Source: Cyanidioschyzon merolae
Lineage: Eukaryota
Direction: 5' to 3' (one strand)
NCBI GenBank assembly: GCA_000091205.1
Contig: AP006495.2
DNA: 64,000 nucleotides
Part shown: in pieces, positions 1 through 57,502 of the stretch
Position numbering within the stretch: position 1 is the stretch's first letter
Layout: every line of letters begins with the position of its first letter
Program-made: the position numbers and the translations under genes
The notes under the pieces: model-generated
What the model saw: the letters and a program-made list of their open reading frames with translations, nothing else
What the model was told of the DNA's origin: nothing
The model's database searches: none

Positions 1-360
1 AGGTGCACGGTGCAACAGCGTGACTGTACAGACGGTAGCGAATTCGTCCCGATTGAACGCAGTCGCTGTATGCCGGCTCCGGTCAGTGGGGCTTTGGTGT
101 ACCGCGGAACCGACTCGAAACCGGAGTCAACTGGTAGCCTGGAGAGGCGTCACGACACGTACGCGTAGAGGTGCGGTTGTGCGAATCTCGTGGGGCTCGC
201 TTCCGACGATCCCCAGCCGACGTCGCTACGCTCCGATAAGCTCGTCTCGTTTACAAAAAAAACCGTGCAGAGCGTTTGGGTTCCCGTGCTTGCCCTTCAC
301 CATTCTAGCTCATCAGGAATCCGGTACACCGACCAGATGGCCGCCCGTCTATATACACCG

Positions 361-1872
361 TCACGAAGACTTTGTTGACATCTCGGTCGTGCTCTCGTCG
401 CACTCAGGCTCGTAGATCTCTTTCAACTGCGCAACGCGTAAATGTGCGAGCAGATTGCGCGCAGCCTTGGTGTGGTTGTAAACGTCCCCGTTGAACGCTT
501 GCGTTGCGTCCCGGACGTTCCAAAACTCAAGAATGCGCTGCCCGCCAGGGTGCTGGACTTTGAACCGCGTACAGTCGTGTACGATACCCTCGATCACGAC
601 GAGGAGACGGTTCTCCTCCTTCGCTAGGCGTTGCACATCCTTCCAAGTCCACACCGGCAGACTTTCAATGGGCTTGCCCCAATCGACCCGCTTTTTGGCC
701 TCGTCCAGTATTTCCTGACGCACCTGTAGGCGCGCCTTCACGAGTTCATTACGCGGGAACCGAACCAAATGCCACGCGAGTCCAGCCCATGATAGGAGCC
801 GGATTACCCACTTGGTAGGGTCCCAGTGATACCACACCACGCCATTGCGATAGTCATGCGGGAATTCATGGTGGAAATTGTGGTAGCCCTCGCCTAGTGT
901 GACCAGTGCGGTGATAACCGAGTCGTAGCTGGTATGCCGGCGTGAGAAGGTTTGCTCACCCCACCAGTGCGCGAGGGAATTGACGCAGAATGTTGATTGC
1001 TGGACAAACAGCATCCGCCCGAGACAAGCGTACACAAGGCCACCCCAGAAGTCTCCCCATCCTAGCGTAGATATCGTCAACGGGATCACAAACGAGAAGA
1101 GAATCGCAATCTGCAGGTAGTAGCGATGCTGGAACCGCAGGATCGGGTTGGCGTTCAAATCGGTAATGTCGACACGGCCCTGGCGCTGCCGTGGTAGCTT
1201 GAAGACCATCCACCACAAGTGCGCGTACCAGAATCCCTTCTCAACCGCGTACGGGTCGCGGTCCGAGTCAACATAGCGGTGGTGCGCGCGGTGTAGACGG
1301 CACCAGTAGCGGGCACTACCCTCAAACGCCGCCGCTCCGAAACACGCCAGAATGACTTGTACGAGCCAGTGCGCCTCGTAGGAGCGGTGGCTCCACAAGC
1401 GATGATACCCGCCGGTAATGCCAAGTCCGCAACAGAAATAGGTCACTATCGCGAGTACGAGCGTTTTCCGCTGAAGAGGCACGAACCAGATCCCAATCAG
1501 CGTTCCAATGAGCGGCGTGAAGATGATGCTCGTCGAGAGCCAGTTGATGCGCTGTAGAAGCGGCAGTTCGTTCAGTTCCTTCTCGCTCATCCACTTCGAA
1601 CTCCGCGTCTTCTCGAATACAAGGCCACGTTGTGGGTCAAACTCAACACCCTCTCGCTCCAGCGGCTCCACAGCCGGTTTCGGACGCGGTTTCAGCGTTG
1701 GGATAACCGCACCGCTGTCGTCCGCGGCGGCTGTGGACGGATTGCTGCCCTTTTCCTCTTCACGAACTTTTGATTCAACCTTGGCTGTCATAGTGCGGTT
1801 CTCAAAAGTGTGCAGAGGCTGTCCACAACACAGATGTTTCACGTAGAGGTCGTCCTGCGCAAAGTGCGTCAC
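361..1872 (-). CDS. Delta-9 acyl-CoA (stearoyl-CoA) desaturase with C-terminal cytochrome b5 domain
   Basis: All three desaturase histidine boxes are present in the translation (HRLWSHRSY, HRAHHRY, HNFHHEFPHDYRN). Multiple hydrophobic segments. C-terminal cytochrome b5 heme-binding HPGG motif (VQHPGGQRILEF). The true start may be an internal Met (MTAKVESK...). Confidence 0.9.
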   Translation of the reverse strand: MTHFAQDDLYVKHLCCGQPLHTFENRTMTAKVESKVREEEKGSNPSTAAADDSGAVIPTLKPRPKPAVEPLEREGVEFDPQRGLVFEKTRSSKWMSEKELNELPLLQRINWLSTSIIFTPLIGTLIGIWFVPLQRKTLVLAIVTYFCCGLGITGGYHRLWSHRSYEAHWLVQVILACFGAAAFEGSARYWCRLHRAHHRYVDSDRDPYAVEKGFWYAHLWWMVFKLPRQRQGRVDITDLNANPILRFQHRYYLQIAILFSFVIPLTISTLGWGDFWGGLVYACLGRMLFVQQSTFCVNSLAHWWGEQTFSRRHTSYDSVITALVTLGEGYHNFHHEFPHDYRNGVVWYHWDPTKWVIRLLSWAGLAWHLVRFPRNELVKARLQVRQEILDEAKKRVDWGKPIESLPVWTWKDVQRLAKEENRLLVVIEGIVHDCTRFKVQHPGGQRILEFWNVRDATQAFNGDVYNHTKAARNLLAHLRVAQLKEIYEPECDESTTEMSTKSS

Positions 1873-2109
1873 GTCACCCCAGCGTACACCTGGATGGAGA
1901 CTGGAACGAGGTCACGCGCACCTGTGCCCCGTCGAGCGCAGCGTCGCAGCAGCATCGGCGCCATTGGCGGCGCTGCTGCGGCGAATGTGTGGTGATTCTG
2001 CGGCAGCGGCGACGGCGACGGCGAATTCTTTGCTAGATTGACAAGGACATTTCCATGGACCTGCGTTCTCCGGCAGTGCGCTTTATATTCGCGCGCAGTG
2101 AAGCATCCG

Positions 2110-2650
2110 TTGCTCCGCGCCCTACTTCCAAATTCCATTATCCATACTTCTACTCGGATCCAGTGGTCATTGCCTATGTTCTATCGTGCGCCGCATGCCG
2201 GTTGTTTCGTATCCCCCTGTGGCGCTGGAACAGATGTGTCATAGAGCCGGACCTGCATTGCCATACCACTGAGGGCGTCGGATCATGGCGGGGTGCACTC
2301 GACACGGATTCGGGACTGATCAGCATGCTGGGAACCAGCAAGTTGTGCTAATAGACGAACTGCCTGCGGCAGCGCGAAGCGATCCACTAGGAGTCCATTG
2401 CGACCTGAGAAACGTGCAGACGCTGCCTATCTGCACCTAGTTTCAGAATAATATGCGTGGCGGGCGAGCTGCTCAGGTTTCGCGGCTGCAGCAGCCACTG
2501 CAGAGTCGCACGAAGCGCAAACTCGGCAGACTCGTACAGTTCCAGGGACGTTCCGCCTCGAAGGTGAACTTTCAAAGTTACGGGAACGTTTCCCCCTTTC
2601 CAAGTTCATCGTACAGGGCGGCAAGGAATATATTCATATATTGGCTGGTG
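2110..2650 (+). repeat. Dispersed repeat R2, copy 1 (about 550 bp), 5' part of the composite R2+X element
   Basis: Shares conserved blocks with 18300-18840 (reverse complement) and 58660-59200. Examples are ttcgtatgttctatcgtgcgccg, ataccactga(g/a)g, aatgagggcgtcgg, ttcgacacggaatcgg, agagtccactgc and ggt(g/a)aactttc(g/a)aag. The phantom peptide HYPYF(I/Y)SD is shared between copies. Confidence 0.6.
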
Positions 2651-2779
2651 AATCGAGAGTCTCTGTGCTTTATTCGAAATAGCGCGCTCGATGCGCGCAC
2701 CTGAGAGATCAGGCAGTCACGAGAATGACGCGAATTTCAATGTTGGAGGGAAACGCGAGCATGACAGTACGTTTTCTTG

Positions 2780-3930
2780 TTGGTCTACCCTTAATGTTGT
2801 ACGTGCGTTGTATTCGTGGCAAAGTATAATTTTCAGTTTAACTGTGTTTCAGTCCTCAAGCAATTATATTCAACTGATTTTTCGCGATTTATAACAGAAG
2901 CGTTCGAAGTGCGCTCTTTTTCAAAAAGATAAAAACGGAAAGTGATGGTAAAGCACGTAGGTGATCCTGGAGGCCCAATGTCGCTGGCTGCCAGAAAAAA
3001 AAACAAAAAATGGAAGAGCAAAGAGGAACAGGAGAAGACGAAGAAGCAAAAGAGGGAGCCCCTACGTCAAAGGCTGCAAGAAAGACGACTGTACGGCGAG
3101 ATGGCGGTGAAATCCTGTCTTCTTAAACATATGAAGGATCCGTACATGGAAAAGCTGCGAGAGGCTATCAGAAACCGTATTGAGTCGCACACCTTGAGTA
3201 TTGTAAAGGCTTCTTCAGGACTAATGCATTTGGCGAAGAAGATATATCATGACGTGACGAACATCAAAACAGTCGAGTTTCCGGAAGAATTTTTCTCAAC
3301 AAAACCTTTTTCGTCACCTGATGCTTGGCACCGGGGAAGCGTCGAGGGCAGATGAGCGAGTGCATGCCCTCCCCGAGAATTACGCCGAGCACTGCCTCAG
3401 CGGTATTCGATACATGGGTGACGCAGATATTTACGAATACGGGGCGATCAAGGACCTCACGAACCTGAAGAACCATCCGACTATGAACCTCGAACGTTTC
3501 ATGATAGGCGCCGTGTTTGCGCTGTACCCGGGCCTCACTCGCCAGGGGATATGGGCTATCATCAATGGCATCACGAACGATTTCCAGTTCATACTGGAGA
3601 TCGAATTCGTCGGCAAGAAGGCACCATGCAGGAGAAAGAATGAAGCCTCTGTCATCCGTGTGGCTGTTCAAGAGCACCGTGCGGTCTTGGGGCTTGTCAA
3701 ATCCTGCAGAAACGATATCAGAGTTGAAAAAAGATGGTATCCCCTCATCCTGCGGTATTTCCTGTTCCTGAAGCGAGAACTCGAACGCAAGGCCGAGATG
3801 GAGCTGATTTGGTGAAAAATGAAGACTCGGAGAGACCGACGGCTGCACTTCTGGATAAGCGCTTCAACGTCGTTCCGATATGCGAGATCGAGTCGCATTT
3901 TGTGACAATCGATTCCAGCGTCCACTAAGG
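2780..3930 (+). pseudogene. Eroded ORF X, copy A, of the composite repeated element (unknown product), split over three frames
   Basis: Translation segments 2942-3355, 3321-3815 and 3734-3928 are colinear with segments of the inverted copy at 16877-17910. Shared strings include [32 protein letters not shown] and NEDSERxxAxLLxKRFNVV. The frameshifts fall at different places in the two copies, which favours decay over conserved introns. Confidence 0.45.
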
Positions 3931-5140
3931 CACCATGAGGGAGCTCAGTCTGGAGTTCGATGTAGGCAGCAAGGAATTTACGGGTGAAAACCGGGAGAAG
4001 TACAGGAAGAATATCTTCGAATTTAAACGTCTCAATACGAGCAAGCAAAAGGTATTCACTGGGATCATCGAAACCGATGGCGTATCCATGTGAGTGTCCA
4101 CTACCGGCGGTTGAATGCGGACCGTCCACTTCCGTCCTCGACATTGCCCGTGACGAAGCATGAAGATGGGAAGGGGGAGGATCCAGCGACACAGAAAGTG
4201 CATGAGAACGACATTGTCGTTGGCGCGGGCCCCGGAAACACGAATATCGTAACCATTGCACTCCCATATGCAGGAAAGATGGTATCGACGGCAGCTTATG
4301 CCAGAACAACATGCATCTTTTAAATTTATCGATAGCAACATATTACCGAGAATCGGGAAGAATGAATGCAAGATTGAATAGTGAAACGTGGAATGCAGGA
4401 GTAAAGGAGCACATGGAGATGCCATCAGGTGCGAATGCCGCACCCGGAATCGTACATATCCCCAAGTACACGTCAGTTGCTGAGACAACGTCCATACAGG
4501 ACGAATCCGTTTCTACCATACAGCATCGAGGGATGTAACATGTATTCCTATGGCTACTGAATGCAAGCGCACGAAAGACATGAGATGGATCCGCTTTTCC
4601 GACGGGTATTGGACCAGTATTGGCAATGTTACACTGCTCACAGGCATGCAATTTGACGCACGCGGATAAGGTGGGTCACTGCGGCTACTGATGACCAGTT
4701 CCGCTCATTGGGCGTACTTCTCATGGCATTGGATCAACGAAGCGGAGCCGATTCCGCTGCCTTGCGAGCGCCATCAGGTCTCAGGCAGGAGAATTTGCCT
4801 CCTCCATAGACGCTACCACTTTTCACTGAGACCACACGAGAATTATCCCACGGAACAGAGGCATTGTGCAGCAACTTTGCGATTGACATACCAACTTTGA
4901 ACCTCGTTCTTTGCGACACGCCAGCCTGGCTTGGAATTCGCAGGCGTCGGCTCTGGGGAGAAATTCAAAGGCTACTCGCCGCTTTGCCGCACGGCATCAT
5001 CGCTTTCCCGTTTCGTCGTTGTGGCCCGCAAGAAACCTAGCATCGAACTGTAGGGGGCTCTTCGGAAGCAAGGTGTACTATTTCCCACAGCTTGACGTAA
5101 ACGACTGTTCAAGCTGAGCGCTGCGTACGCATTCTCGAAG

Positions 5141-7360
5141 TTGCTACCACACTGCACGATTTTCGTGGAAGCATTCACGCATATGACGCATGTACCAAGC
5201 GAAGACTCCCACAAGATCCAAGTGTCGACAGCGAAATCGCCACCGCCTAATTCGAAGCGAACTATCGCTCACGAGCTGGAGTCGATGGAAACCTCTGCTA
5301 GGCCGAGTCGCTGCCGCGAGACAAACGGCGGGCCCGCAGGCCCCTGCAATCCCTGGACAGGTAAACCGTTTTCGAGCCTCTATTACCAGCTCGAGGAGAA
5401 GCGACGGGCGCTTCCGGTGTTCCAGGAGCGTGAAAGAATCGTCGAAATCGTTAAGCGAAACCGCGTCGTTGTCCTACAGGGAGAGACCGGCTCAGGGAAG
5501 ACAACCCAGGTACCGAGGCTCCTCCTCGAGGCGGGGTTTCAGCGTATTGCTTGTACCCAGCCACGACGCATAGCTGCAGTAAGCGTTGCGACTCGGGTGG
5601 CGCATGAGATGGATGTGCGGCTTGGCGAGCTGGTCGGCTACACCATTCGCTTTGAAGACGTTTCGCATCCGAAACTGACGCGACTCAAGTATGTGACGGA
5701 CGGCATGCTGCTGCGCGAGGCGTTCCAAGATGATAGGCTCTCGCGCTACGACTGTATCATTTTAGACGAGGCCCATGAACGTACACTGAGCACGGATGTG
5801 CTCATGGGTCTTCTCAAGGGTATTCTGAAGCAGCGCCCCGAACTGCATATGGTCGTGATGAGCGCAACCCTGGAACGTGATCATTTTTGCACCTACTTTG
5901 ACCATGCTCCGTTGCTGAATGTAAGCGGTAGAATGCATCCCGTGGATATTCGCTTTGCAGAGCGTCCTGTCTTCGACTATCTGTTCGCAGTGGAGCAGCA
6001 GGTACGCCAAATTCATGAAAACGAACCGGCTGGGGATGTGCTGATCTTCCTCACCGGTGAAGAAGAGATAGAGGATATGTGTAGCCGCCTGCGTCACTAC
6101 TCACGAGCGACGGCGCGAAAACACGGAGCGCCGTTGCAAGTGCTGCCGCTGTATTCGGCGTTGCCCATGTCCGTACAGGAGCGGGTCTTCGAGCCGCCAC
6201 GCCCACCGGAGGCCCGCAAAGTCATCGTCGCAACAAACGTAGCGGAGACCTCGATCACTATCGACGGGATTACCTATGTGATTGATCCAGGCTTTGCCAA
6301 GGTCAAAATTTACAACCCGAGCACTCGCGTGGAATCGCTTTTGGTTTCGCCAATCAGCCAAGACAGTGCAAGACAGAGGGCAGGTCGCGCAGGCCGAACC
6401 CGTCCCGGTATTTGTTATCGTCTGTATACAGAGGAGGCTTTCCGAACAGAGCTGCCGGCGCGCTCACATCCCGAAATCCTTCGTTCCAATCTCTGCAACG
6501 TCGTACTCACTTTGAAGAAACTCGGTATTCATGATCTTATTCACTTTGATTTCATGGACCCGCCGGCGCCAGACACCATGATCCGGGCTTTGGAGATGCT
6601 CTTCTATCTGGGCGCCGTCGACGAAGAAGTCGAACTGACACAACTGGGACGCCAGATGGCAGAATTTCCACTCGATATACAGATCGCTCGAATGCTGCTT
6701 GAGTCGCCACGTCACGGATCGAGTAACGAAGCAATCACACTGGCCGCCATGCTCTCCGTCCCAAACGTTTTCTTGCGTCCACGTCAGCAAGCAGACGAGG
6801 CCGACGCTCGAAAGCAGCGTTTCGTTGTATCCGACAGCGATCACGCCACTTTGGTGCGCGTCTTTGAGGCCTTCATGGACCACGGCTGCGATCGCCAATG
6901 GTGTGCGGAGAACTATTTGAATGATCGAGCGCTCATGCACGCGGTGAACATCCGCCGACAGCTGGAGCTCATGATGCAACGAATGGGTCTACGTATCTGC
7001 TCGCCGGGTAGGCGCGCTCCGGACCGTTGGATACGACTGCGTCGCTGTGTGTTGGAAGGGTTCTTCTCGCAAACTGCATTCTGGATGCGACGACGGGATT
7101 ACTTGACGATTCGGGATGAACAGCTCGTTGGCCTTCATCCCAGCAGCGTCATTCGCCATCGACCTTCGTGGGTAGTATTCCACGAGTTTGTACTTACAAC
7201 CGGGAGCTATATTAGAACAGTGAGCCAGATTGAACCGAAGTGGCTCTTCGAGCTGCCTACAAAATACTACGATCTACTGGAATACAAGGAAGGAGCATCG
7301 CGCAGGGCGCTCGAACTCGCCGCCCGTCTAACAGGACAGCGGCGCTCCGCGGCACCGTGA
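5141..7360 (+). CDS. PRP43: DEAH-box ATP-dependent RNA helicase, Prp43/DHX15-like
   Basis: Motif I GETGSGKTTQ, motif II DEAH (ILDEAHERT), SAT, TNVAETSITIDG and QRAGRAGR are all present. The N-terminal block CNPWTGKPFSSLYYQLEEKRRALPV matches the Prp43/DHX15 NPFTG...LPV signature. A C-terminal HA2/OB region follows. The length of 739 aa fits Prp43. Confidence 0.88.
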   Translation: MLPHCTIFVEAFTHMTHVPSEDSHKIQVSTAKSPPPNSKRTIAHELESMETSARPSRCRETNGGPAGPCNPWTGKPFSSLYYQLEEKRRALPVFQERERIVEIVKRNRVVVLQGETGSGKTTQVPRLLLEAGFQRIACTQPRRIAAVSVATRVAHEMDVRLGELVGYTIRFEDVSHPKLTRLKYVTDGMLLREAFQDDRLSRYDCIILDEAHERTLSTDVLMGLLKGILKQRPELHMVVMSATLERDHFCTYFDHAPLLNVSGRMHPVDIRFAERPVFDYLFAVEQQVRQIHENEPAGDVLIFLTGEEEIEDMCSRLRHYSRATARKHGAPLQVLPLYSALPMSVQERVFEPPRPPEARKVIVATNVAETSITIDGITYVIDPGFAKVKIYNPSTRVESLLVSPISQDSARQRAGRAGRTRPGICYRLYTEEAFRTELPARSHPEILRSNLCNVVLTLKKLGIHDLIHFDFMDPPAPDTMIRALEMLFYLGAVDEEVELTQLGRQMAEFPLDIQIARMLLESPRHGSSNEAITLAAMLSVPNVFLRPRQQADEADARKQRFVVSDSDHATLVRVFEAFMDHGCDRQWCAENYLNDRALMHAVNIRRQLELMMQRMGLRICSPGRRAPDRWIRLRRCVLEGFFSQTAFWMRRRDYLTIRDEQLVGLHPSSVIRHRPSWVVFHEFVLTTGSYIRTVSQIEPKWLFELPTKYYDLLEYKEGASRRALELAARLTGQRRSAAP

Positions 7361-8489
7361 CTTGCATCCAGAATAAGGTTTGACGTATTTCCCAAGTTTG
7401 CGGCGTCTCGCCGGTGAGCACTGCAGCGCCAACCTCGGGTGTATGCGAACGTGCTTGCCCTTGCGATACGGAACAACTCGCATCCATGGGTGAGTGGTGA
7501 ACACTCAATCGCACAGAGCAAGTTTCGCCAGCCTCGAATACACGAGAGAGTGCGCACCGGTCATCGGTAACCAGAGAGGAGGCCCTCGTATCTATCGAGA
7601 CGCTTCCATGCTCAGTCAGCGCTAGGCCAGTCTTCTCGTCGGGAACGGGGCTGGCATCCATCTATCCATCTATCCATCCATCGCACGAGCGAGCGGCTTA
7701 CGGGTGTGCGGTCTCGTGCATGTGCTCACTGCAACGCTAGATATGCCGCTACGGTCTCTGCACCGAGACAGAACGACCTTGGCGTAATCGTCAGGGCATT
7801 CACTTGAAAGCCACTTTTCATTTGGGATTGCCACGTCGCTCTGCTGGCACCAGTGATGGAGTACTGCGGATGAACGCGAGGGTATCGGAACGCGTCTGCG
7901 ATAGCTCGCTAAACGCGTGCCTCTAGGCGTACGTTGCATACGGCGACTTACACAGCGTGCCTCCGCCGTTCCCAAACGCATACCAGACTCGCAACGCCTT
8001 CACACGACATGATACCTCGAGCTTCATTCAGTTCCCGCGAAGACGGCGTATGGTGTTGGCAAATGCGCCGAGTGCCAAGCATCGCCGAACGTGGGCAAAG
8101 GACTTTGTCACCGGCGTCGGTTGAGGCGGAAACTCACAGCGAGGCGCGCACGAGACGCCTCGCCTGTGTACGAGTCTGCGTTCTCAACGACGCGGTGCAG
8201 ACGCTTGCTTCGTGCTCTATAAGCGCTAGCCACTGGGACATTACGGCTGCGTATTTTCTCTCCAGTGATAGAGAATCGCACCACAGGCGGGAGTGCAGCC
8301 GCCTCACAGCTTATCGATTCGAATGGAGCATTGCTTGAGGCAGCGTATCCCTTGCCTCGGTAATGAGGCGCGGACTGGTGCAAACCCCAGAAACGTGCAG
8401 AGCGCCAGCTCCACGTGTTTTGTGGTTGCATGCAGCGGCGATGACGCTGGCAGAAGCGCGCACCTCCATCGAAAGGACCCATCAAATCC

Positions 8490-8525
8490 GAGGCAGCAGC
8501 AGCAGCAGCAGTAGCAGTAGCAGAA
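8490..8525. repeat. (CAG)n microsatellite
   Basis: gcagcagcagcagcagcagtagcagtagcag, seen directly in the sequence. Confidence 0.85.
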
Positions 8526-8614
8526 TCCAGCACGACATCGCTCCGGGCGTGCCCTGTGAACGACTGCAGACCTTGGCGGCGGTTTCATTCGTACACTTCT
8601 GGAGGTCATGCTCC

Positions 8615-10129
8615 CTATGACTCAGTGCAGGCCTGATCACGCAGGGTCGCCAGCGCTACTTGGAGCGCACGACGCAGCGGACGCAGCGGTACCTGAACTG
8701 CCTGATCCCGGAGATACACACGACTGCTGGTCTGGGAATCGGGATAGTGCGCAGTCGCCGTCGCTGCCGCAAAATCCAGGTCCGCAGCATCCATGTCATC
8801 GGTTTCGCGCTCCCAGAAAGGTAATGGTGACGACGGTATCGGAGGCGAATCACCCTCTACGGAGAAGTAATGGACCGGAGCTCCGCCAGCATGAGCGTAC
8901 ATGTCGTGCTGGAATCCGTAGGGAAAGAGCTCGATCAGCGCTGATCGCCACGGTGGTAGTAAACTAGCGTAGACGAGCTGGGCACCATGAACGGATATCA
9001 GTACATGCGTTCGCTGAATCATCTCTACCAGCCGTTGAACACTGCTGCGCGTGGTATCGTTCGCGCTCGCCTCTACAATGGTAAAGTCGTAGGCGTAGGC
9101 CTCGCGATAGCGGCGGAGTAATGCAACCACAGCATCCTCGTTCGCAAGGCATCGACGACGACATGCGGCTTGCGAGCGCTTCTCCGCACCTCTGCGAAGG
9201 TACGTCACCTGCAGCCGTGGCGACGGTCGGTGCCACAGCGGCATTATCGAAGGGACCGCCCTGCACTGGTCACGACCGCTGGTATCCGCTGGGAGCATAG
9301 TCCGCTGGGCTGGTGCGCTCTTCATACCCAGATGATCGAGTACAGCTGCGCGCCATGCCATTGCATCAGCTGGTGAACGAAAGAAACGACTTTTCAAGAG
9401 TCCAGGCAGGAGCAGCCGAGAGCCGCACAGCACCGTGTTGCGCCGGAACGGAAGCTCCCGGCCTTGTTGCCTCGAATACGCAGTCACCATTGCATGCAGA
9501 TATACACAGAATATGCTTTGGTTATCGCGTTCAGTGCCGCAGGCGTATAACGGACTGGTTGCGTGCTGGGCGTGCGCTGGCCACCAGAGCACCACCGGAG
9601 CGTGGCGCTTTCCCTCCGAGGCGCCAAACTGCCGGGGAAGGCCCCAGTTCGCGAGCCATTCTCCGGCGAAATGTGCCGGGTTAAAGTAGGCAGCCCTGGA
9701 GAACCAGTTGAGGACAAGCGTCTCATTTGTCAGGTTGGGAATCGCGCGTCGTACGGGTTCCAGCGACGTGACCCGCTCGACTCGAACGCGCTTTTGCTGG
9801 AGGAAGCTCTGCACACGGTGCGTTGCGTCGGGGTCCACGGACCTCTGGGAACCACTCGCTTCGATAAAGAGCACTGCGTTGGTCGAGTTAAAGCAGAACG
9901 GTGAGCGCACTTCTAAGACGTGTTCCGTGTACTGCTTGGAGACGACGCCCGCCGTTCGGTGCCGCCAAACGTGCAAACGGAAACGGGCGGAACGCGCTCC
10001 ACGTTGTAACAAACTTGTTGGCAGCGAGTGCGCATCGAGCTCCGATCTGGGTTGGTGGAAGGCGAACCAGAGCGCCAGATTTCGTACTAGTTCGAAGATC
10101 AGTCCACAGAGCAGCACCTGTCGCCACAT
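8615..10129 (-). CDS. GT61 (DUF563) / EOGT-like glycosyltransferase, type II membrane topology
   Basis: N-terminal signal-anchor (LLCGLIFELVRNLALWFAF). The C-terminal block RRCLANEDAVVALLRRY...VLISVHGAQLVYASLLPPWRSALIELFPYGF resembles the EOGT/GT61 block R.I.NEDEV..LL...MHGAGLT...FLP....V.EL. Confidence 0.7.
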   Translation of the reverse strand: MWRQVLLCGLIFELVRNLALWFAFHQPRSELDAHSLPTSLLQRGARSARFRLHVWRHRTAGVVSKQYTEHVLEVRSPFCFNSTNAVLFIEASGSQRSVDPDATHRVQSFLQQKRVRVERVTSLEPVRRAIPNLTNETLVLNWFSRAAYFNPAHFAGEWLANWGLPRQFGASEGKRHAPVVLWWPAHAQHATSPLYACGTERDNQSIFCVYLHAMVTAYSRQQGRELPFRRNTVLCGSRLLLPGLLKSRFFRSPADAMAWRAAVLDHLGMKSAPAQRTMLPADTSGRDQCRAVPSIMPLWHRPSPRLQVTYLRRGAEKRSQAACRRRCLANEDAVVALLRRYREAYAYDFTIVEASANDTTRSSVQRLVEMIQRTHVLISVHGAQLVYASLLPPWRSALIELFPYGFQHDMYAHAGGAPVHYFSVEGDSPPIPSSPLPFWERETDDMDAADLDFAAATATAHYPDSQTSSRVYLRDQAVQVPLRPLRRALQVALATLRDQACTES

Positions 10130-10449
10130 ACAAACGCAGGACTAGGGTTTTAGTGCGGATGCTGCAGCGGCGCTACAGCCCTGAGCGCAGACACGTCGGA
10201 TGGCGTCCTTGAGGGCAGCGTTAACCTGTTGCTCGCGAAAGAGTTCAGGTGTATGAGCTGGTTCGTAGCAGCATTCGCGTACACAAGGCAGCATGATCAG
10301 GTTTATCGATCCCAGCTCCTTCAGACATGCTATGACTGTGTCAGTAACTGAAATCAGACACGGAAATGCTTGCTCTGTTCCTGCATTCCGATGTTTCCGA
10401 CCATGTTTCGAACGCACTGCATCGGAATTCGAGATACAGCAATGACGGC

Positions 10450-11400
10450 TTACGGATGCATACGTAGTTTTATGATTATCGGTCGTTTTTCGGAGTCGCT
10501 CCTTTGACTCGTTGCCATCTGGATTTCGCTTTGTTATCGTACTGAAGATGATTCGCGACGCGCTCCAGCAAGAGTTCTCAAAATAACAGGTACCGTTATG
10601 CCGTGCATCAGTGCATGCCTCTAAGCTTCTTCTTTTCTTTACGTGGAGCATGCTCAAGTCACGCATTCTTCAAGTTTTCGATGTTCCTGTTTCAAGGCCG
10701 CTCGGGGCACAGCAATGCGCGCCGCTGATTCCAGGGCGAGAGAAACTTCACGTCGTCCGACTACGACTTGCTCACCAGCTCATGCGGAACCTTCACGGAA
10801 ATGTTGACTGTAGGGAATCCTTCCCGTTCGGAGGGAAAATCCTGCTTTATTTGTGGCCATCAGCGAGAGGCCGTTCGATACACATATGATGCTGCTCACA
10901 TCATTTGTATCCAGAGGCTCCCGTCTCGTCCGTTTGCATGCGAAAAGGTTTCGAGCTAGAACTGGAGCCATCGCAGCGACCGTATACTGTGAAGCGTGCG
11001 TCAGTGCGTGGCAAGAAGGGAGCGTAAACGGGTCAGGACCTGTCGACTTGTTCTCTAGTCTGGACATTCCTTCCGGTTCTTGGTTCATCATGGGCAACAT
11101 GGTGTTCCATGAACCCCCAGTCGAATGGAACAGCGTACGATTGCGCATCCAGACAGAACAGAGACCTTGCTGAACAGTTCGCGTACAGAAAATGCCTGCG
11201 ATCGTAGTTTTTACCCAGTTGGGCGCGGAAACGGACGAGCACATCCCTGGGGGGAGCCTCTGCTTCCAGTCAAGAGCAAGTACCAAGGGAAGAAGCCAGC
11301 GTGCATGCGCTACAAGGCAACCCTGGGAGCAGGAGAAAAAGGTTCAATAGACATCTTGAAACACCTGATCACAGTCAAAATGTGAACGCCGCGACAAGCG
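10450..11400 (+). repeat. Dispersed repeat family R1, copy a
   Basis: Conserved blocks are shared in the same order with 26480-27790, 38040-39340 and 52740-53970. They include ga(t/c)gattcgcgacgc, aagcttc...tttacg...atgctcaa(g/a)tcacgcat(t/a)cttcaag, cgccgctgg, tcgacttgttc, and catcatgg...ttccatgaa...gaatggaacagcgt.cg...tgcgcat. The 3' end of this copy is less clear. Confidence 0.6.
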
Positions 11401-11908
11401 TAACGATGTTGTATTCAAAGCAGGTGAGCATGAGAAGCGATTCGTAGATCGCATTCCCCACCTTTGCTCCAAATGCGTCGCTGACACCGGGAAGCCGAGT
11501 CATCGGGACTTGAACGCTGCCATCAACCTCCGTCGACTGCGGAAAACGGTACTCGAGGGAGATGCGTGACCAAAGTCTTTCAATCTGGAGATACGAGAAA
11601 AGAAAAGCAGGCAATCACACGGAAGGCCAGCAAACGCCACCGCTGATAAACCTGGGAGAAGACCAATATACTAGTATCCATGCCCGACATGGAATTCTCT
11701 ATTCGTTTTCCCCTACTATGGGTGTATGGCATTTCAAACACCCAAGCAAAGTGCATCCAGTGTACACAATCATCCGCCGCCGCCGCCACCGCCGCCGCTG
11801 CACCGCCGGCGCGATGGACAACCGCTGCCTTCATCGCGTGAATACTCCAACTGCTGAGATCTGTTCCTGAAGTTCCTTCTCAGCACTGCTTGTGAGCTAG
11901 CCAAGCTG

Positions 11909-12946
11909 ATGTTCGTTCTCGGTTTGCTGCACGCTGCGCGGCCTAGTCTTTCTTGGCAGAAACTTGAGCGTCGGCGACGTCTGCACTTGGGGCAGCGGAG
12001 ACCGCGCTCCAGTGGACGTGGTTGCGTGGTGGCGTTGCGGCCGCCACCGGGTGACCCCATCGCCAAGAAGTACGCCGAGCTGGACAGCGACCCCTACGGA
12101 CCCGCGCGTATTCGAAACGAGCCCCAGATGGAAAAGAATCAGTTTGGGATAGAGCAACCGGTGCTAAAACCGTTGGAGCAGTTTCAGGTCTCGATTTTTG
12201 GAGAGCTCCGTGAACCTGTCGAGGAGCAGGACTTTACATATCGCTGGGAGCGGGACAGCGACGAGGACTGGCCCGTCTGTCCGCGCGGACTTTACCCAGA
12301 AAACTACCCGCTTTCGGATGTGCTGAAGGCGGAGTTGGACATGCCAACTGTCGAGGAGTATGACTATGATGAGCGCGTGTACCATATCGTGGAGCTCGAG
12401 CCATCCATCCTCGATATGCTCCAGGAAGACGGCCTGTTGAGAGTTCGAGACAAGCGAGCGCCCAGCGACGCAACGGGTACGAAATCCAAGCGAGGTCAGC
12501 GCGGCATCAGAGCGCCGGTGGAGGGCACCGAACCCGCTCGGGCCTCGAAAGCTGGTCGACGTCGCCGGGAACGTGACGACAGCGAGGCGCTCTTTGACGA
12601 TGTAGAGGATGTCGCATTTGGAGACGATGTTTCGATCCATGAGCTACCGGACGTCGATCCCGACGAACCCACCTTGCTTGAAGACGAGTCTCTTGTGGAT
12701 GGTGATCTCGAAATCGATGACATGATCGACGAAGGCGATCTGGACGTGGATTCCGAGTATGATGACACTGCATTCGAGGACGATACAACGGACTACGACG
12801 CAGACGAGGTACTGGATGATGACAGCGATGACTATCGGTTGGATAGTTTGGACGAAGATGTTGATGTGGATTTTGACTATGACGGCGGGTTCGGTAGCCG
12901 TGCCACCGGACCAATCGGTCTCAGTGATGACTTTGACTATGATTAG
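11909..12946 (+). CDS. Hypothetical highly acidic protein with a D/E-rich low-complexity C-terminal half
   Basis: 345-codon ORF. The C-terminus is dominated by Asp/Glu runs (DDMIDEGDLDVDSEYDD...DEDVDVDFDYD). No recognisable catalytic motif. The start codon is uncertain. Confidence 0.4.
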   Translation: MFVLGLLHAARPSLSWQKLERRRRLHLGQRRPRSSGRGCVVALRPPPGDPIAKKYAELDSDPYGPARIRNEPQMEKNQFGIEQPVLKPLEQFQVSIFGELREPVEEQDFTYRWERDSDEDWPVCPRGLYPENYPLSDVLKAELDMPTVEEYDYDERVYHIVELEPSILDMLQEDGLLRVRDKRAPSDATGTKSKRGQRGIRAPVEGTEPARASKAGRRRRERDDSEALFDDVEDVAFGDDVSIHELPDVDPDEPTLLEDESLVDGDLEIDDMIDEGDLDVDSEYDDTAFEDDTTDYDADEVLDDDSDDYRLDSLDEDVDVDFDYDGGFGSRATGPIGLSDDFDYD

Positions 12947-14824
12947 CGGGGTAGGGCGATTTCGATGGGTACATAGACCTGTTCTTTTTTTTGTTTGCAT
13001 GCGAGCAGCCTGACGGATCAAGTGGAAACCGGTTGATGACGCGGCGATCATCATGCGCATCGGTGAGCATCTCCTTGGAACGAATAACGCGCGAGTACGC
13101 ATCAACGATTGTGCAGCGATGACACGCCCAGTCGATGAGTGCCTGGTACGGTCGTGCGCCTGTCGGAGTATGCGAATGTGTGCTCATGTTCGCAAAGCGG
13201 AGCATTGGAGTTATTCGGATTGGGGCAAATATCATAGACGTTGACGGGATCTTGACGAGTTTTGAAACGCGAAGCTCAGTGGGTCGCTTCTGAGCGACCT
13301 GTCATGATTCGAAACGCTGTTCATAAACTTGAGAATATGGATATATGTTTTCGTAGACGATCTGCACGGTACACGTCCGCCACGTCCGTCGGATTGTCAC
13401 CGAGCTCGCTGGCCTGAAATGCGGCCGAGAAGCGCCAGCCGGGGCTCCTGAGCACAACGTGCTGGGCTCGCAAGAGACCGCCATCGATAAGTCTTGCAAG
13501 GGTTCCCTTTCCAGAGCGAGTAGCCGGTTGCTGGTACTCCCAGCGAGGTTTTCGGCGTTCGATATTCGAGAGTCCTGTCGTGGTTTCCGAACACTGGACA
13601 AAAAGCATACTTGTCTCTGTCATGGTTATCCTGGATCGCAGAGCGCCTGCGCCCAGTTGCGACTGGAAGCCGTGCGCCAGGGATGCTGCTTCGCCACCGT
13701 GATTCCGTCTACGCCCGAGCATTCAGCGCACGATCGGATTGTGTACTTGCCGCTGCTGGAAGCGTACGAGTTTCATGTCGATGCATGATGCGTCCTCAAG
13801 TCGCCTGTCATGGAAATCAATGGAGTATGGACGTCCGTCACGCTTCCGAGGAATCTCATCCAATGAGCGGTGCCTGTTCGACGAGAGATGCATCGGTCTT
13901 GGTTCGCATTCGCCACAATCCCATGCGAACCAGAAATCCACCACTGTGCATCGCACGGACATCGAGCGCGAGGGATGAGTCGGAGGTGGTCACGAAGGAG
14001 GAAATGGTGCGCCCAGCGCTTGCTAGAAGCGTGTCGGGAACACAACCACTGCATGCTGCCACTGCCATTGAAACCGATGATGACTCGGTACTCGTGATTG
14101 TTTCAGCGGGCGAAACACTCACTGGCAGAGATCATGTGAATCCTGAGTGAGCGCGTGGCACCGTGACCCGATGCTCGGGGTAGCGAACGGATGTCGCACA
14201 GCTACCCGAACGTGACGCCGAGTGGAAGCCAGGCGGAACAGCTGCAGCGCCTCTGTATGACGCGCGTTCCGAGAGGTCTGCGGAGAGAGATGCCCACCAC
14301 TGACACTGAAGCCCGTCGCATAGATCGTACGTTTCGCCCCGGAACCCGATCTAGCTACCGGGAGACCATGTGGATGCGTCATGTATGGACGGTGGAGTTT
14401 ACCACGCGCTCGTTCGGAATCGTATACACAGGCGATGCACGTTCGCTGCATCGATCGGACGCACAGGAAGACGCAGACACCGTCATGTTTGCACGGGACG
14501 ATTCTGGACAATTACGAACAAGAATGCTTTCCGCGTGGCGTGCGCTTGTTGGGCGCATGGGACTTTTCTGAACAAATAGGTTCAAAGATTGCATTCCAGT
14601 TGGAACGCCCCTGAAGAGGCGATCGGTGCGGGGCGCGCATGCTACACGCCCGGTTGTGTTCCGATACGAGCGGCATTATCGCAGGCTGCGCAGTCGTACG
14701 CTTATACGTAACGACACGGTACCAGGAGCGTACTGGTCGCACTGAAAACAGCGACCATACAAACGTGCAAGACGCGCCGAACTCTAGCTCCTATCGGGCA
14801 GAGGTCGCTAACGGCTATCGCATA

Positions 14825-15736
14825 ATGTCCGTGTTTCGGCGGTTTCTTTATCACCTCGGGTACCTGGCACGGGAGACGGGACAGGCACTCGATCGAGCGG
14901 GCTGCTTTTTGCAAGGCAACTTTGCTTATCGAGAAGCGCTTTACTTGTCCCGACACCGCCAAATCATGAACCTGGTTGATCGAAAACCCATAATTTCTCC
15001 GCAGGTCCAGTTTATAGCTCCGAATGCTGCTATAATCGGTGACGTCGCTATCGGTGCTGCGAGCTCTGTCTGGTATGGCGCCGTCATTCGAGGCGACGTC
15101 AACAAGGTGGTCATCGGTGAGCGAACCAACGTACAGGATCGTGCCGTGATTCACGTCGCCTCTGGAGGCGGTAAGCTCGAGAGAGCGTTACCCACTTTCA
15201 TTGGCAACGAGGTAACGATTGGGCACGGAGCTATTCTTCATGCGTGTGCTGTTGAGGACCAGGCGGTTGTTGGTATGGGCGCCATTGTTCTAGACGGGAG
15301 CAGAGTCGAAAGCGGTGCAGTGATCGGAGCGGGGAGTGTTCTGCCGCCGGGCACTGTTGTCGGTGCCGGCCAGTTGTGGTTGGGTACGCCTGCGCGCTTC
15401 GTGCGCCTTGTTTCTGCCGAAGAGAAGCAGCAGTTCGCTGTCCAATGTAGTCAGTACGTCGAGCTTGCCAAAATGCATGCCACAGAATGCGGTAAGACGC
15501 CAGACCAATTGGATGCGGAGCAAATGGCGGCTCTGCTCTGGGAGGAACGCAGCGAAGACTATTTGAGCAGTCTCGGTCTTCTTGGAAAAGAAGAGGACGT
15601 TATGGCCGCGCAGAAGGCCTATTTGGCCCACGAACGACAATTGGCCGCGTCTGGTGCACCAAAAGGCAGCGGGAAACCGGAAACAAAGATTTCCTCGTCG
15701 ACTGATGCACGGCAGCAGGTGTCGGCTGGGCACTAG
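14825..15736 (+). CDS. Gamma-type carbonic anhydrase / complex I gamma-CA subunit (left-handed beta-helix hexapeptide-repeat protein)
   Basis: MSVFRRFLYHLGYLARETGQALDRAGCFLQG closely matches the plant gamma-CA N-terminus (FYSVGFWIRETGQALDRLGCRLQG). It is followed by hexapeptide repeats (IGDVAIGAASSVWYGAVIRGDVN...GNEVTIGHGAILHAC). The supplied ORF begins at 14639, but the homologous start is Met at 14825. Confidence 0.85.
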   Translation: MSVFRRFLYHLGYLARETGQALDRAGCFLQGNFAYREALYLSRHRQIMNLVDRKPIISPQVQFIAPNAAIIGDVAIGAASSVWYGAVIRGDVNKVVIGERTNVQDRAVIHVASGGGKLERALPTFIGNEVTIGHGAILHACAVEDQAVVGMGAIVLDGSRVESGAVIGAGSVLPPGTVVGAGQLWLGTPARFVRLVSAEEKQQFAVQCSQYVELAKMHATECGKTPDQLDAEQMAALLWEERSEDYLSSLGLLGKEEDVMAAQKAYLAHERQLAASGAPKGSGKPETKISSSTDARQQVSAGH

Positions 15737-16876
15737 GAGGCGGCCGCGCAACCTCACGCACCAGGCAACTGTGCTGTGCACCGCCACATGCTCTGGCATG
15801 CTTTTTAATGTGCGTGCTCGTAGATAAAAGGCAACCATGGCAATAGTTAGGAGGAATCATTGAATCGGTCGTTGAACGAGCGATTTTGGTGAAATTTCGG
15901 TTCGTTTCGAGCGAAACTATGATCGATGGCCATCATGTGATCGCAGCAGGCGATCCAGGCGTTCCTTGGAGCACATCGACTGAAGTCGTGCCCGCTCACA
16001 TGCGCCTAGCGATGAAGCATCGAATGACGAAGCTGGACGTACGTGCGTTGAAGAGGCCAGTCTCGGGAACAGCAGACCATGCTCTGGTGACAGCGTCAAA
16101 AGGCACGACGAGATACACCTTGAAAAGGCCGCTTGTGAGCATTCCGTATCCATGCTCTCGCACCAGCGTAAACAATCACTACGAAATGGATGGAGAAACG
16201 CCGTGCTCCGCGCTTGCTTCAGATACTCACCTGAAGAGCGATTGCCCATGCACGAGGTATTCATCGCGTTTGAGTGCATGACCATGATCGGGTGTATGTT
16301 CATACACCGACGTGCAGACGCTTCCCAGTGGTTCTCGAACGGCGACCTACTACTCGTTTCAACTTCTACTTGTGCAGTTCGAGCCTACGAGGTCGGTCCA
16401 CAAAGTTGGTTCATGACAGGCTTGGAGGTCTCCTCTGCGGTATCGCACATTTCCTGATATTGACTGCGGCGTTGACGTCCCCGTTCACGAACTCCGTACG
16501 TTTCCTGCCGCTGGATGAACGCGCCAGTGCAAGGAGTTCTCGAACTCGAGCACTCTTTGCCGTTTGATGCGCTTCAGCTCTTCGTACTTTTCTATCCCCT
16601 GAGCGATAGACTGGCCCGTTTCCATCCCGACTTTCTGAAGTGTACATCGCAGCTCATGGTGCACGTATGTCTTTCGGAACGCATCTATGGGGACCGTGTC
16701 AAAACGCTGTGCGCACTGCTCGTGCGCTAGTGTCGACGGAGCCGGTGTGCTCCCTTTCTGAGGCACCCAGCGCCATGCTCCGTATGCTATTAGGAGCATT
16801 TGACTCTTGTCTTCCTTAAAGACGCTCAACTGATTGAAGAAGTTCACGAATGCATGCTTCTTCCTGCAGCACAGCC

Positions 16877-17910
16877 TCATTCGCTGACGAGCCCGCCGGG
16901 CTTTGTGTACAGTTTCCACAGCTCCTCGAAATGAGCAGCTTGAGTTGCCAGGAACTCTAGAAAGGCTCGAAAGCTCGCGCATCGGCTCGTCACATTGCTG
17001 AACTCCTTCTTATGGACGTCGAGCTCAAGGCTGATCTCCTCTATGTTGCCGTGAACGGCGCTGGAATCGATTGGCTCAAAGTAGGACGTGATGTTGCACA
17101 GCAGCACGACGTTGAAGCGCTTCCCCAGTAGGAAAGCCTTCTGTCTCTCCGAATCTTCATTTTCTTCCGCATCCAGCTGAATCTCCGCCATGCGTTCGAG
17201 TTATCGGTCCGAAAACACGAAATACCGCAAGATGAGGGAATAACATCTTTTTTCATCTCTGATATCTTTTCTGCTGGATTCGCCAGCCCCAAGACCGCAC
17301 GATGCTCTTGAATAGCCGCACGGATGACGGAAGCCTCATTCATGCTCCTGCGTGATGTCTTCTCGTCGACAGATTCGATCTCCTGTTCATGCAGGCGATC
17401 GTTCATGATGCCATTGATAATCGCTTATTTTCCTCTGCGAGAGATGCCTGGGTAGAGCGCAAATATGGAGCGTTTCATGAAACGCTCCAGGTTCATGGTC
17501 ATATGGTTCTTCAGATTCGTGAGGTACTTGATTGCATCGTAAGTGTGCATATCCGAGTCATTCCTGTGTCGAGCACCGTGAAGCGGTATTCGGCGTGATT
17601 TTCCTGTAGGGTATGTACTCGATCGTTTACGCTCGACGTTTGCCCGGTGCCAAGCATCAAGTGCCGGATAATGGCCTTGTTGAAAAATTCTTCCAGAGCC
17701 TCTAATGTTTTGTTGTCCGCTACGTCGTGGCACGTCTCCTTCACCAAATGCATTATTCCTGAAGAAGCGTTACGAACACTGCTGGAGTACGACGCGACAA
17801 GGTGTCTGGTGGCCTCTCGCAACTTTTGCTTGAAGGGATCCTTGATACCGCGTCGAAGAAAAGCTGTCAGTACAATCTCGTCGTACTGTCGTCTTTCTTG
17901 CAGCATTTGA
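16877..17910 (-). pseudogene. Eroded ORF X, copy B (inverted paralog of 2780-3930), split over four frames
   Basis: ORFs 17511-17906, 17425-17733, 17041-17406 and 16877-17191 are colinear with copy A. Examples are LQERRQYDE...[46 protein letters not shown] and NEDSERQKAFLLGKRFNVV. Confidence 0.45.
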
Positions 17911-18299
17911 CGTCGGGCCTCCGCCCTTTGCTTCTTCGTCTTCTCCTTTTACTCTGAACTCGGCACTGTTTTTCGTTTTTCTCCGGCAACCGGAGATACT
18001 GGTCCTCCAGAATCCTCCGCCTCTATACCCATACGTTTATTTTTTATGTTTCAAAAAGAATTCAATTTGAAAGCATCTGCCATGAACCAAGAAACCTCAC
18101 TGGAATACAGTAATGTGAAGGTTGAAACTCAACTGAGGTCAAACACCGTATTTGGCTATGACTGTAACATCGTTACAGCACGTACGTTAGAGCGGCACGC
18201 TAATCATCAGGATCACGTTTCTCTTGAACGGCGAGAGGCGCGTCGTGTCTCCTGCCTTCCTGATCCCGAGATGCGCATATCGACCGCGCTATAGAAAAA

Positions 18300-18840
18300 G
18301 GAAAGCAACGAACCGCAAACTAGCAATGAGATAGCATTGTTGTCATCGTCTATGGTGCAAATTCAAAGGGAGAAAAGCTTTCCTCATTGCCGAGAGTTTA
18401 CCTTTTAGGTGGAAGGTCCTGCGAGCCAGACGAGTGTGCCCGGTTTGCGCTCCGTGCGACTCTGCAGTGGCGGGTGCTGTGGTGACATCTGAGCGGCTCG
18501 CCCGCAACGCTGTTTATTCTGGGATAAGCGGCTGTTAGGCTGCGTCCGCGGGCGTCACCCTGGCCGTGGTAGACTCTCAGAATATCGCTTCGCGCTGGCG
18601 CAGGCAGTTCGTCTATCAACACAACTTTCTGGTTCCCAGAATGACAATATGTCCCGACCCAGTATCAGGTGTAGCATTCCCGGAGCCGACGTCCTTAGTG
18701 GTGTGGAAAAGCCGTTCATTCTCTATGATGCATCCGCACCAGCGGTACAGGTGCTATGACGGGTGCTCAAATCAGACACTCAGTGCACAATAGAACATAA
18801 GAAACGACCCGCACATCCGAAATGAAGTATGGATAATGGA
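18300..18840 (-). repeat. Dispersed repeat R2, copy 2 (inverted relative to copy 1)
   Basis: The reverse complement aligns block-by-block with 2110-2650 and 58660-59200. Examples are cagaataa.cagcgttgcgggcgagc.gctcag, ccactgcagagtcgcacg(g/a)agcgcaaac and cctaaaaggtaaactctcg. Confidence 0.6.
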
Positions 18841-19135
18841 ACCTGATGGTAGGGTGCATCATGATGGCTGCTGCCCAGAAAGCCAATACCCATTTCGCAA
18901 TCTGGGATCGCTGACCAGTGTAAACTTTTTTCATCAAAAATAAAATTCGAAATCGCCGCTTGCCGCTCGCGCCACTGAGGTAGGTGACCTCGCGCGTGCG
19001 ACGTTCCGTAGAGCGCCAGGGAGCCGTACACGCCGCAACTTGCCGGCGAGTGTGCGCTTGAAACGCTGACTCAAGATCTCTAGACACGAACTCAATAGTT
19101 CCACGACTTGCAGCTTGCCGTGACTGTGGTGCGGC

Positions 19136-26479: not shown

Positions 26480-27790
26480 GGATTACTGAACTGCTATATT
26501 GATTCCTGCCTTTCGATGGATTTCCGAACGTTTTCTCGATGTACAGACTCTGTATTCGAAGTCCAGCTGCTAGGGTTTATGGATTCATACGCAGTTTTTC
26601 GATTTTCGATCGTTGTTTCGCCGCGGATGCATCGACACATTGCTGCTGGAATTCGTTATCCTACCGGAATGATGATGATTCATGATGCTTTCAAACTACG
26701 GCACGTAAAATTACGAACTCTTATATCCTAATCAAATGTACACGTCTCCGCGCTCTTCATTTCCTAACGTTTGGCATGCATGAATCACGCATTCTGGCAG
26801 TTTTCAACGTTTCTGTTACAATGCAGCTCGTGGGCGCCTCAGTTCTCGCCGCTGGAGTGATGACGAATAAAAAACTTGACGTCGTCCGTTGACGACTTGT
26901 TCCGGAGCCCTTGCCGAAAATCCATCGAACTTTTCACGTCTAGTAATCGATTCCTTCTCAAGGACAAATCAGCCTTGCTTTGCGGATTTCAATGAAAAAA
27001 TACTCTCCATCAGCATCATAACTCTCAGAGGATAAGCTCATAGAGGAACGCGTTTGATTTATTTGCACGGAAAGGGGTCTTAGAGTCGGACTTGGGCCAT
27101 CGCACCGATCGCTTCCCCCGGTATGTGCGTCGCCGCCTCGCACGCAGGAGACCTATATCAATCGAAACTGCTCGACTTGTTCACCAGTGTGTGTTTTCAG
27201 TCCAGGACTTGCCTCATCATCCACGATATCGCATTCCATAAATCCCCTTGGGAATGGAACAGCGTTCGTCTGTGCATGCAGCAGACATTGGGCTCGTTGA
27301 GGCCATTGCCCAGAAGAAGCCCGTGATCCTGAGTTCCGGTACCGGGCATTGAATCGGAAGATGATCTCGAGGGGTGACATGTGTACCCGCCAACGACAGA
27401 TGCCGAGCGATGATGCGAGCCTTCGCGCGCTACCGTTCAGTCTGCTGAGAATGAGGAAGTGTGATGGATATATGCGAACACCTGACCGCTATCAAGTATC
27501 GCCGCTGTACATGGCGCACCGAGACTGAATACGAAGAAGATAAAGTTGAGAAGCGGTGCATAGATCGCAACCATCGTCTTTACATGAAATGCATCGACAA
27601 CCGTCAAAAGCAGCGACATCGGGACCTAAACGTTGCTATCAACATCCTTCGACTGCTGGCTACGAAGCCCGCGGGAGAGATGAGGCAGGCATATTTGGAG
27701 CCACAGATGAGAGACAGAAAACCCAAGTGACCGGAGGAAGCGCTCGCAAAAGCTGGTGTTGATGATGCCACAAAAAGACCCCAACCTCCT
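26480..27790 (+). repeat. Dispersed repeat family R1, copy b
   Basis: Carries all R1 blocks, including the distal ones: atcaacatccttcgactgctgg, gagagacagaaaa and ctggtgttgatgatgcc. Confidence 0.6.

Positions 27791-57466: not shown

Positions 57467-57502
<36 letters not shown>

Follow-up and report, generated by a model that had tools for sequence, protein, structure and literature searches.

A 64,000-nucleotide stretch of DNA from the red alga Cyanidioschyzon merolae (GenBank assembly GCA_000091205.1, contig AP006495.2), referred to below as the window, contains two diverged copies, A and B, of a repeated element that lie in opposite orientation on either side of a block of about 13 kb. Each copy begins with a non-coding module, R2, which is followed by the remainder of the element, here called the core: a non-coding leader and the remnant of an open reading frame (ORF), designated X in the initial annotation of this DNA. 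The block holds the four genes that the annotation had named there, which encode a Prp43-like helicase, a GT61-like glycosyltransferase, an acidic protein and a gamma-CA. Elsewhere in the window R2 recurs, bringing its copies in the 64 kb to at least five. The third, R2-only copy (C) that had been reported at about 58.6-59.2 kb was recovered by blastn (58673-59156, 67% identity) and by the R2 profile (E = 1e-173), and to it are added the copies D and E and small fragments, which the annotation did not contain. The positions of all parts are compiled in Table 1.

The colinear inverted homology of A and B is real. A repeat search of the window revealed eight colinear inverted pairs (2216-3978 against 17001-18751) with 71-82% identity, and blastn yielded one merged alignment of 2117-3963 with 18857-17016 (71.2% over 1864 columns, E = 0). 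In a global alignment the homology, colinear and 71% identical, reaches from 2117 to 3978 (+) and from 18857 to 17001 (-), with a clean onset and offset. The longest run identical between A and B today is 21 nt. The example given earlier for the broken reading frame of X is correct as well: the ORF of copy B at 17511-17906 is continuous through ...EEFFNKAIIRHLMLGTGQ..., where copy A is shifted in frame (near 3296-3321). The limits of the elements had been drawn correctly as far as the pairing is concerned, but not in length, since the 5' terminus of the family lies about 85 nt further out (A, about 2027; B, about 18945). The end assigned to ORF X was right only in part, as the coding remnant of both copies runs on where the DNA homology of A and B has ended, reaching 4427 (A) and 16305 (B). 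Element A as a whole spans 2027-4427 (+) and element B 18945-16305 (-).

In a metagenome scan 220 copies of the family were confirmed, and the anatomy of the element was read from 80 loci that were fetched. Complete elements measure about 3.3-3.4 kb, with 656 bp or so in R2 and roughly 2.7 kb in the core; the DNA profiles comprise 620 positions for R2 and 2788 for the core. Such an element would consist of four parts: the non-coding 5' module of about 656 bp (R2), a leader of about 340 nt, one ORF and a short conserved 3' end. The 5' terminus emerges from an alignment of independent copies, in which unrelated flanks are followed by a T-run and then by GATGACAAAACGTTTAC. The 5' boundary of the core is sharp (2683 in A, 18288 in B), starts with a GC-rich palindrome and is kept in all members of the family, including those without R2. 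In 17 of the fetched loci R2 directly adjoins the leader, so that R2 and X are physically associated elsewhere too, as the initial annotation supposed; R2 also occurs alone, as in copies C, D and E of the window and in L014 and L036/L037. The ORF is intron-less, has about 700-790 codons and most often ends with ...RRLHVSWRRFV*, overlapping the 3' end of the element. This end is sharply conserved as far as ...GCCACTACTGTAC, and in many cases a short palindrome comes next. By inspection the two termini, the T-run with GATGACAAAACGTTTAC and ...GCCACTACTGTAC, are not complementary, and the element has no terminal inverted repeats (TIRs). No second conserved ORF was seen in the loci; the full length of the element is made up by R2, the leader, the ORF and the tail. 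Alternative 5' modules occupy the core junction in other members of the family, R3 (about 555 nt) in many loci and R4 in few; neither is present in the window. The loci with R3 or R4 are L011, L025, L027, L040, L041, L043, L045, L047, L061, L071 and L080, and also L017, L035, L009 and L073.

The element contains short palindromes at three sites: at the 5' end of R2 (window 2027-2050; GTTTT..AAAAC around GATGAC), at the 5' end of the core (window 2683-2700; GCGCTCA-N-TGAGCGC or GCGCG..CGCGC) and after the 3' end (CGTCGTTCGA-CTT-TCGAACGGCG or AACGTTTTTC-TTTT-GAAAGGCGTT). The three palindromes and the lack of TIRs recall hairpin-ended elements, in which case the palindromes would have a putative hairpin role. 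Copies with R2 contain a pyrimidine tract and then AG (agtctctgttctttgttcgatatAG) immediately before the R2/core junction (2660-2683 and 18310-18288 in the window; class-1 loci). The tract resembles a 3' splice site, probably by coincidence in this intron-poor alga.

Comparison of A with B restores a continuous, intron-less ancestral frame. On the minus strand, 16411-16982 encodes the peptides LLIAYGAW..KGSTPAPS..VPIDAFRKTY and FVNGDVNAAVNIRKCA, and copy A carries YYRESG. A hybrid query of 688 amino acids, assembled from the N-terminal and middle parts of A and the C-terminal part of B, matches 36 proteins, the sole Pfam assignment of which is DUF8286. The best of them, P0001 (752 amino acids), is 45% identical over 100% of the query (E = 8.6e-190). 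Intact relatives contain the motifs GxDPG, VDEFRT(S/T) and FVNRDxNAAINI. An exhaustive profile search returned 3,325 cluster representatives (50% identity, E <= 1e-3), and 71 diverse relatives were used to build a family profile and alignment. Against the PDB, the 71-member profile has only three matches, all of them to Fanzor1 proteins: PpFz1 (9cf0, E = 5.1e-25), SpuFz1 (8gkh, E = 2.2e-18) and GtFz1 (9cer, E = 1.5e-15). These alignments cover the TDGVS, DPG, DEFRTS and NRD..NAA motifs, and the residues of the RuvC D-E-D triad, D379, E545 and D591, are invariant in the 71-member alignment. The Pfam family PF07282 (Cas12f1-like TNB), which represents the zinc-finger/TNB region between RuvC-II and RuvC-III, is recognized in 20 of the 71 members (E = 9.8e-9 at best); in the closest relatives of the window copies the match is weak (E = 0.09-0.2). 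Searches of Pfam with the single ORF fragments or with the 688-residue hybrid gave no match, PF07282 and PF01385 being too distant from the family for single decayed sequences to reach them, and P0001 alone or a 14-sequence profile found no match in the PDB.

By homology across REC/WED and RuvC, the family is Fanzor1, with a split RuvC, and the window copies are pseudogene members of it. ORF X, in which transposase, integrase or reverse transcriptase domains were to be looked for, is instead, as judged from the PDB profile search, the N-terminal half of a gene for a TnpB-like, RNA-guided nuclease of the Fanzor1 type. Fanzor1 is an omega-RNA-guided endonuclease that recognizes a transposon-adjacent motif (TAM) (PMC11423790); in characterized systems the omega-RNA is transcribed from the 3' end of the element that encodes the protein. 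By homology, intact members of the present family would bind an omega-RNA derived from the 3' end of the element and cut guide-paired DNA next to a TAM; any such omega-RNA would be expected to end just beyond ...CCACTACTGTAC at the 3' end of the element. In P0001 (L001, from 11226-11374 onward) about three tandem 75-nt repeats encoding ...VQDNDLIVDAAKHEENK... are located just upstream of RuvC-I, where copy A has one unit. This tandem-repeat region is the sole recurrent alignment break of the family.

Table 1. Positions of the element copies and of the enclosed genes in the window, with the profile or homology matches that support them
Feature	Position	Strand	Supporting match or remark
Copy A, R2 module (TE-N2_CMe-like, non-coding)	2027-2682	+	R2 profile 13-618 = 2039-2638, E = 1.8e-155; junction with core 2682/2683
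Copy A, non-coding leader of core	2683-3022	+	core profile starts at 2682; palindrome CGCGCTCGATGCGCGC first
Copy A, Fanzor1 pseudogene, 3'-truncated	3023-4427	+	P0001 residues 5-550; core profile 2-1969 = 2682-4417
Copy B, R2 module	18289-18945	-	R2 profile 3-609 = 18943-18336, E = 2e-174; junction with core 18288/18289
Copy B, non-coding leader of core	17967-18288	-	core profile begins at 18289; Fanzor residues matched from 17966
Copy B, Fanzor1 pseudogene, N-terminal part	16994-17966	-	P0001 residues 1-328; core profile 2-1308 = 18289-16999
Copy B, Fanzor1 pseudogene, C-terminal part	16305-17014	-	residues 545-751, tblastn 17014-16399; core 1977-2676 = 16999-16305
Copy C, solo R2 (TE-N2_CMe-like)	58590-59215 (3' limit approximate)	+	R2 profile 4-607 = 58593-59169, E = 1.1e-173
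Copy D, R2 fragment, 5'-truncated	27895-28264	+	profile 233-613, nhmmer E = 3.5e-53
Copy E, R2 fragment, 3'-truncated	43408-43675	-	profile 4-267, nhmmer E = 2.3e-24
Small R2 fragments	47506-47602, 47275-47335	-	R2 profile
DEAH/HA2/OB helicase (Prp43-like)	5285-7360	+	
GT61-like	8615-10129	-	weak match to PF04577 (E = 6e-5), short of the Pfam cut-off
Acidic protein	11909-12946	+	
gamma-CA, hexapeptide-repeat	14639-15736	+	

Both window copies are dead and decay neutrally. Copy A has five frame changes (its tblastn segments lie in frames 2, 3, 2, 1, 1 and 3) and an in-frame stop at 3926. Its RuvC-I reads VGAGPG, as against VGADPG in relatives, a change of the catalytic D to G, and the C-terminal third, with RuvC-II and RuvC-III, is missing. 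In the region behind it, 4418-5300, there is no Fanzor similarity above that of shuffled controls; family-like peptides read by eye at 4590-4900 were no better than such controls and were discarded. The N-terminal part of copy B matches in frames -3, -2 and -1 by tblastn, and in the A/B alignment an in-frame TAA replaces a GAA codon. An internal deletion of about 670 nt, with the microhomology TTCAGC at its junction, removes RuvC-I. The C-terminal part of B holds RuvC-II, the zinc-finger/TNB region, RuvC-III and, of the conserved 3' tail, some 90 nt; its RuvC-II reads IDAFRKT (E to A), a further C-terminal motif is FVNGDVNAAVNI, and the last 60-110 nt or so of the family 3' end are absent. Neither copy can therefore act as such a nuclease: A has lost the RuvC-I aspartate and the whole C-terminal third, B the RuvC-I region by the microhomology deletion and the RuvC-II glutamate by substitution, and both carry several frameshifts and stops. 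Mismatches between A and B are distributed evenly over the three codon positions (34/25/31, 22/20/24 and 17/22/15). The initial annotation had seen in A and B two decaying copies of one ancestral ORF carried by a transposable element rather than a conserved exon structure, and this is upheld by the different positions of the breaks, the lack of codon periodicity and the loss of catalytic residues and large segments.

The origin of the pair follows from its place in the family. When all members are ranked by score, B is only 55th for the core of A, and A is 7th for the core of B, all pairs being 72-77% identical. Since A and B are not each other's nearest relatives, they go back to independent insertions and not to a local duplication. 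The view of the pair as a structural inverted repeat that brackets the block is thereby abandoned: copies at unrelated loci resemble A or B at least as closely as the two resemble each other, in a family with hundreds of copies. We regard it as highly probable that A and B arose by separate insertions of one old transposable-element family, which is dispersed in C. merolae and its relatives, and that both have long been dead. Their opposite orientation around four housekeeping genes would then be an accident of insertion, and copies C, D and E would be further solo or fragmentary members. The closest relatives of copy C are the solo copies in L036/L037 (82%), and downstream of it neither the core profile nor tblastn found a core or Fanzor match.

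The solo copies invite the question of whether the host retains R2 for a function of its own, as a non-coding RNA or a regulatory module. Conservation in some of its blocks exceeds that of the adjacent sequence, as at 2330-2383 in the comparison of A with B, and the number of its occurrences in 64 kb would fit a function. However, the best-conserved block is partly deleted in copy C, D and E are truncated, and divergence among the copies is about 30% and gives no indication of constraint. A search of Rfam with the window and with a complete element (L019) gave only a tRNA and no match for R2 or an omega-RNA, and the positions of the copies show no visible pattern relative to genes. A host function of R2 is very unlikely on these grounds.

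The inverted pair had also been proposed as a former substrate for inversion of the 13-kb block, and the ends of the two relics lend some appeal to an inversion with breakpoints inside the elements, by which the B segment 16305-16999 would be the lost 3' third of A. Copy A stops at core position 1969 (window 4417) and the second segment of B starts at 1977 (window 16999), corresponding to L001 coordinates 11640 and 11644; when the end of A and the second segment of B are joined, the Fanzor ORF is seamless and in frame, with no base gained or lost. The lack of Fanzor similarity behind copy A points in the same direction, as does the observation that no other member of the family breaks at about 1308 or about 1970, by which a family-wide fragile site at about 1970 was also rejected. 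Arguing against an inversion is the order of the genes. In a diverged outgroup (contig Ga0531430_00144), the genes of which are 64-78% identical, desaturase(-), helicase(+), GT61(-) and acidic protein(+) have the same order and orientation as in the window, and the absence of any R2 or core sequence at this locus means that site A is empty there. As an outgroup without the element shares the orientation, the present orientation of the block is ancestral, which refutes a simple single inversion. Both relics are present in six strain-level contigs, which match the window at 99.3-99.5% identity and keep its order throughout, and in strain 10D the gene order, judged by the order of the accessions, is unchanged. 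The gamma-CA, PRP43 helicase and desaturase of the window cluster at 90% identity or more with the 10D proteins BAM80940, BAM80937 and BAM80936, and a contig with a desaturase identical to that of 10D (L092) is 98.3% identical to window 245-2727, R2 of copy A included; both results mark the host as C. merolae or a very close strain. Moreover, the TTCAGC microhomology at the B junction is typical of a simple deletion, and the breakpoints lie at non-homologous positions and so would not have arisen by recombination between the repeats. There is no sign of any inversion in the six contigs, in the accession order of 10D or in the outgroup without A, and we consider a past inversion highly improbable. 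The relics matter neither structurally nor functionally to the genes between them.

Window position 17547 or so is the end of contig L002, and L003 and L004 end near 17450, so that independent metagenome assemblies break inside copy B. Such breaks are consistent with a repeat family that fragments short-read assemblies.

Two colinear inverted copies only 13 kb apart could also stem from a local inverted segmental duplication, in which a 2-kb segment was copied in inverted orientation and then diverged in place; the similar identity of A and B over coding and non-coding parts (71-75%) would be expected from such an event. The ranks given above contradict it, as do the hundreds of copies elsewhere and the empty site A of the outgroup. 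In addition, the homology starts exactly at the 5' terminus of the family, which is common to the solo copies and to unrelated loci. A local duplication is therefore extremely improbable. A reading of the X copies as paralogous genes of the host, intact and expressed, with introns or sequencing errors in place of the breaks, is practically untenable even though some members elsewhere are intact and under purifying selection, since the ancestral ORF is continuous and intron-less in intact relatives, the breaks are 1-nt indels and stops placed differently in A and B, sequencing errors are excluded by the recurrence of the same lesions in independent assemblies 99.3-99.5% identical, hundreds of codons are lost along with catalytic residues, and the substitution pattern is neutral.

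Several observations weigh against independent insertion and decay of an element with the anatomy and function outlined here. About 29 of the fetched loci have the core without R2, with other 5' modules at the same junction, so that R2 is not obligate in the family. An omega-RNA finds no support in the 3'-terminal 290 nt: the consensus structure predicted by RNAalifold is weak (-13.9 kcal/mol), pairing is no better than in shuffled controls, and pair counting revealed no covariation beyond that of shuffles. The AlphaFold model of the relative P0034, computed from a 36-row alignment, is poor (pLDDT 53.4, pTM 0.40). Independent decay does not explain why the truncation of A coincides, exactly and in frame, with the far end of the deletion in B, except by a chance of about 1%. 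Finally, we infer the identity of the element with CMe-1A and of R2 with TE-N2_CMe, two repeats known from C. merolae, from the published description (host, size, copy number and shared 5' module) and not from the consensus sequences.

The state of the family outside the window bears on whether it is extinct. Pairwise identities among copies are 66-77%, and an ORF of at least 600 amino acids is kept in 3 of 49 non-identical near-full-length relatives; in the long-ORF copies substitutions are in excess at third positions and dN/dS is 0.29-0.47. P0001 and the 745-residue ORF of L019 are examples of intact copies. A few copies keep ORFs of full length and are under purifying selection, the core is joined at one junction to no fewer than three different 5' modules (R2, R3 and R4), and both ends have palindromes, with neither inverted repeats nor a transposase. 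It is therefore conceivable, if rather unlikely, that the family is still active in the Cyanidiales, through hairpin-dependent, trans-mobilized or homing-type spread by a heat- and acid-tolerant Fanzor1. A separate proposal, to be entertained with similar reserve, is that the fit between the ends of A and B records a real exchange of DNA between the relics.

Some features of the window stand apart from the element. Dispersed non-coding repeats with 66-70% identity are shared with the unrelated contig L001 (window 10414-10695, 38187-38478, 52937-53108 and 38678-38827, as well as 10969-11157 and 27228-27497; partners in L001 at 16544-17273 and 1343-1738), which suggests additional intergenic repeat families in the genome. 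An intron-containing tRNA-Tyr (GTA) at 37782-37870 (-) is the sole Rfam or ARAGORN match in the window. A poly-glutamine (CAG/CAA) run at 57380-57470 lies inside the ORF 56755-58110, and a (TG)n/(CA)n microsatellite at 62250-62330 appears as CVCVCV in translations.

The genome of C. merolae is known for very few transposable elements. The locus illustrates that two inverted copies of a repeat on either side of housekeeping genes may be no more than two chance insertions of an old family, and that an apparently uncharacterized ORF, with DUF8286 as its only Pfam assignment, turns out to belong to Fanzor1. Intact, selected copies from thermo-acidophilic red algae could be of interest to those who seek robust, compact RNA-guided nucleases.

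Bacterial IS200/IS605 elements carry tnpA, tnpB and an omega-RNA. The present element resembles them in its TnpB-type RuvC nuclease, in having neither TIRs nor obvious target-site duplications (TSDs) and in the short palindromes near both ends. It differs from them in lacking TnpA (Y1/HUH) and any second ORF, in residing in a eukaryotic nucleus and in carrying a long non-coding 5' module. In comparison with SpuFz1, PpFz1 and GtFz1, the family profile aligns over REC/WED, RuvC-I, RuvC-II, TNB and RuvC-III. The similarity is distant, and the window copies are pseudogenes.

The element is already known and has been described in the literature. For the Fanzor1 element CMe-1A, about 150 copies are recorded in C. 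merolae, which share about 80% identity with a consensus some 3 kb long (Bao and Jurka 2013, Mobile DNA 4:12, PMC3627910). CMe-1A has no TIRs, its TSDs are undetermined, some copies are still intact, and its 5' 635 bp are 95% identical to the whole of TE-N2_CMe, a repeat with about 70 copies (PMC3627910). No newer literature on the CMe-1A element was found. The relatives collected here differ from CMe-1A in that they include subfamilies with other 5' modules at the same junction, which PMC3627910 reports for MCi-2 of Mucor but not for C. merolae. In all else that can be compared the two descriptions agree: a C. merolae host, a length of about 3 kb, one Fanzor1 ORF, a 5' portion of about 635-656 bp that is also a separate short repeat, no TIRs, and old copies at about 70-80% identity, most of them decayed and a few intact.

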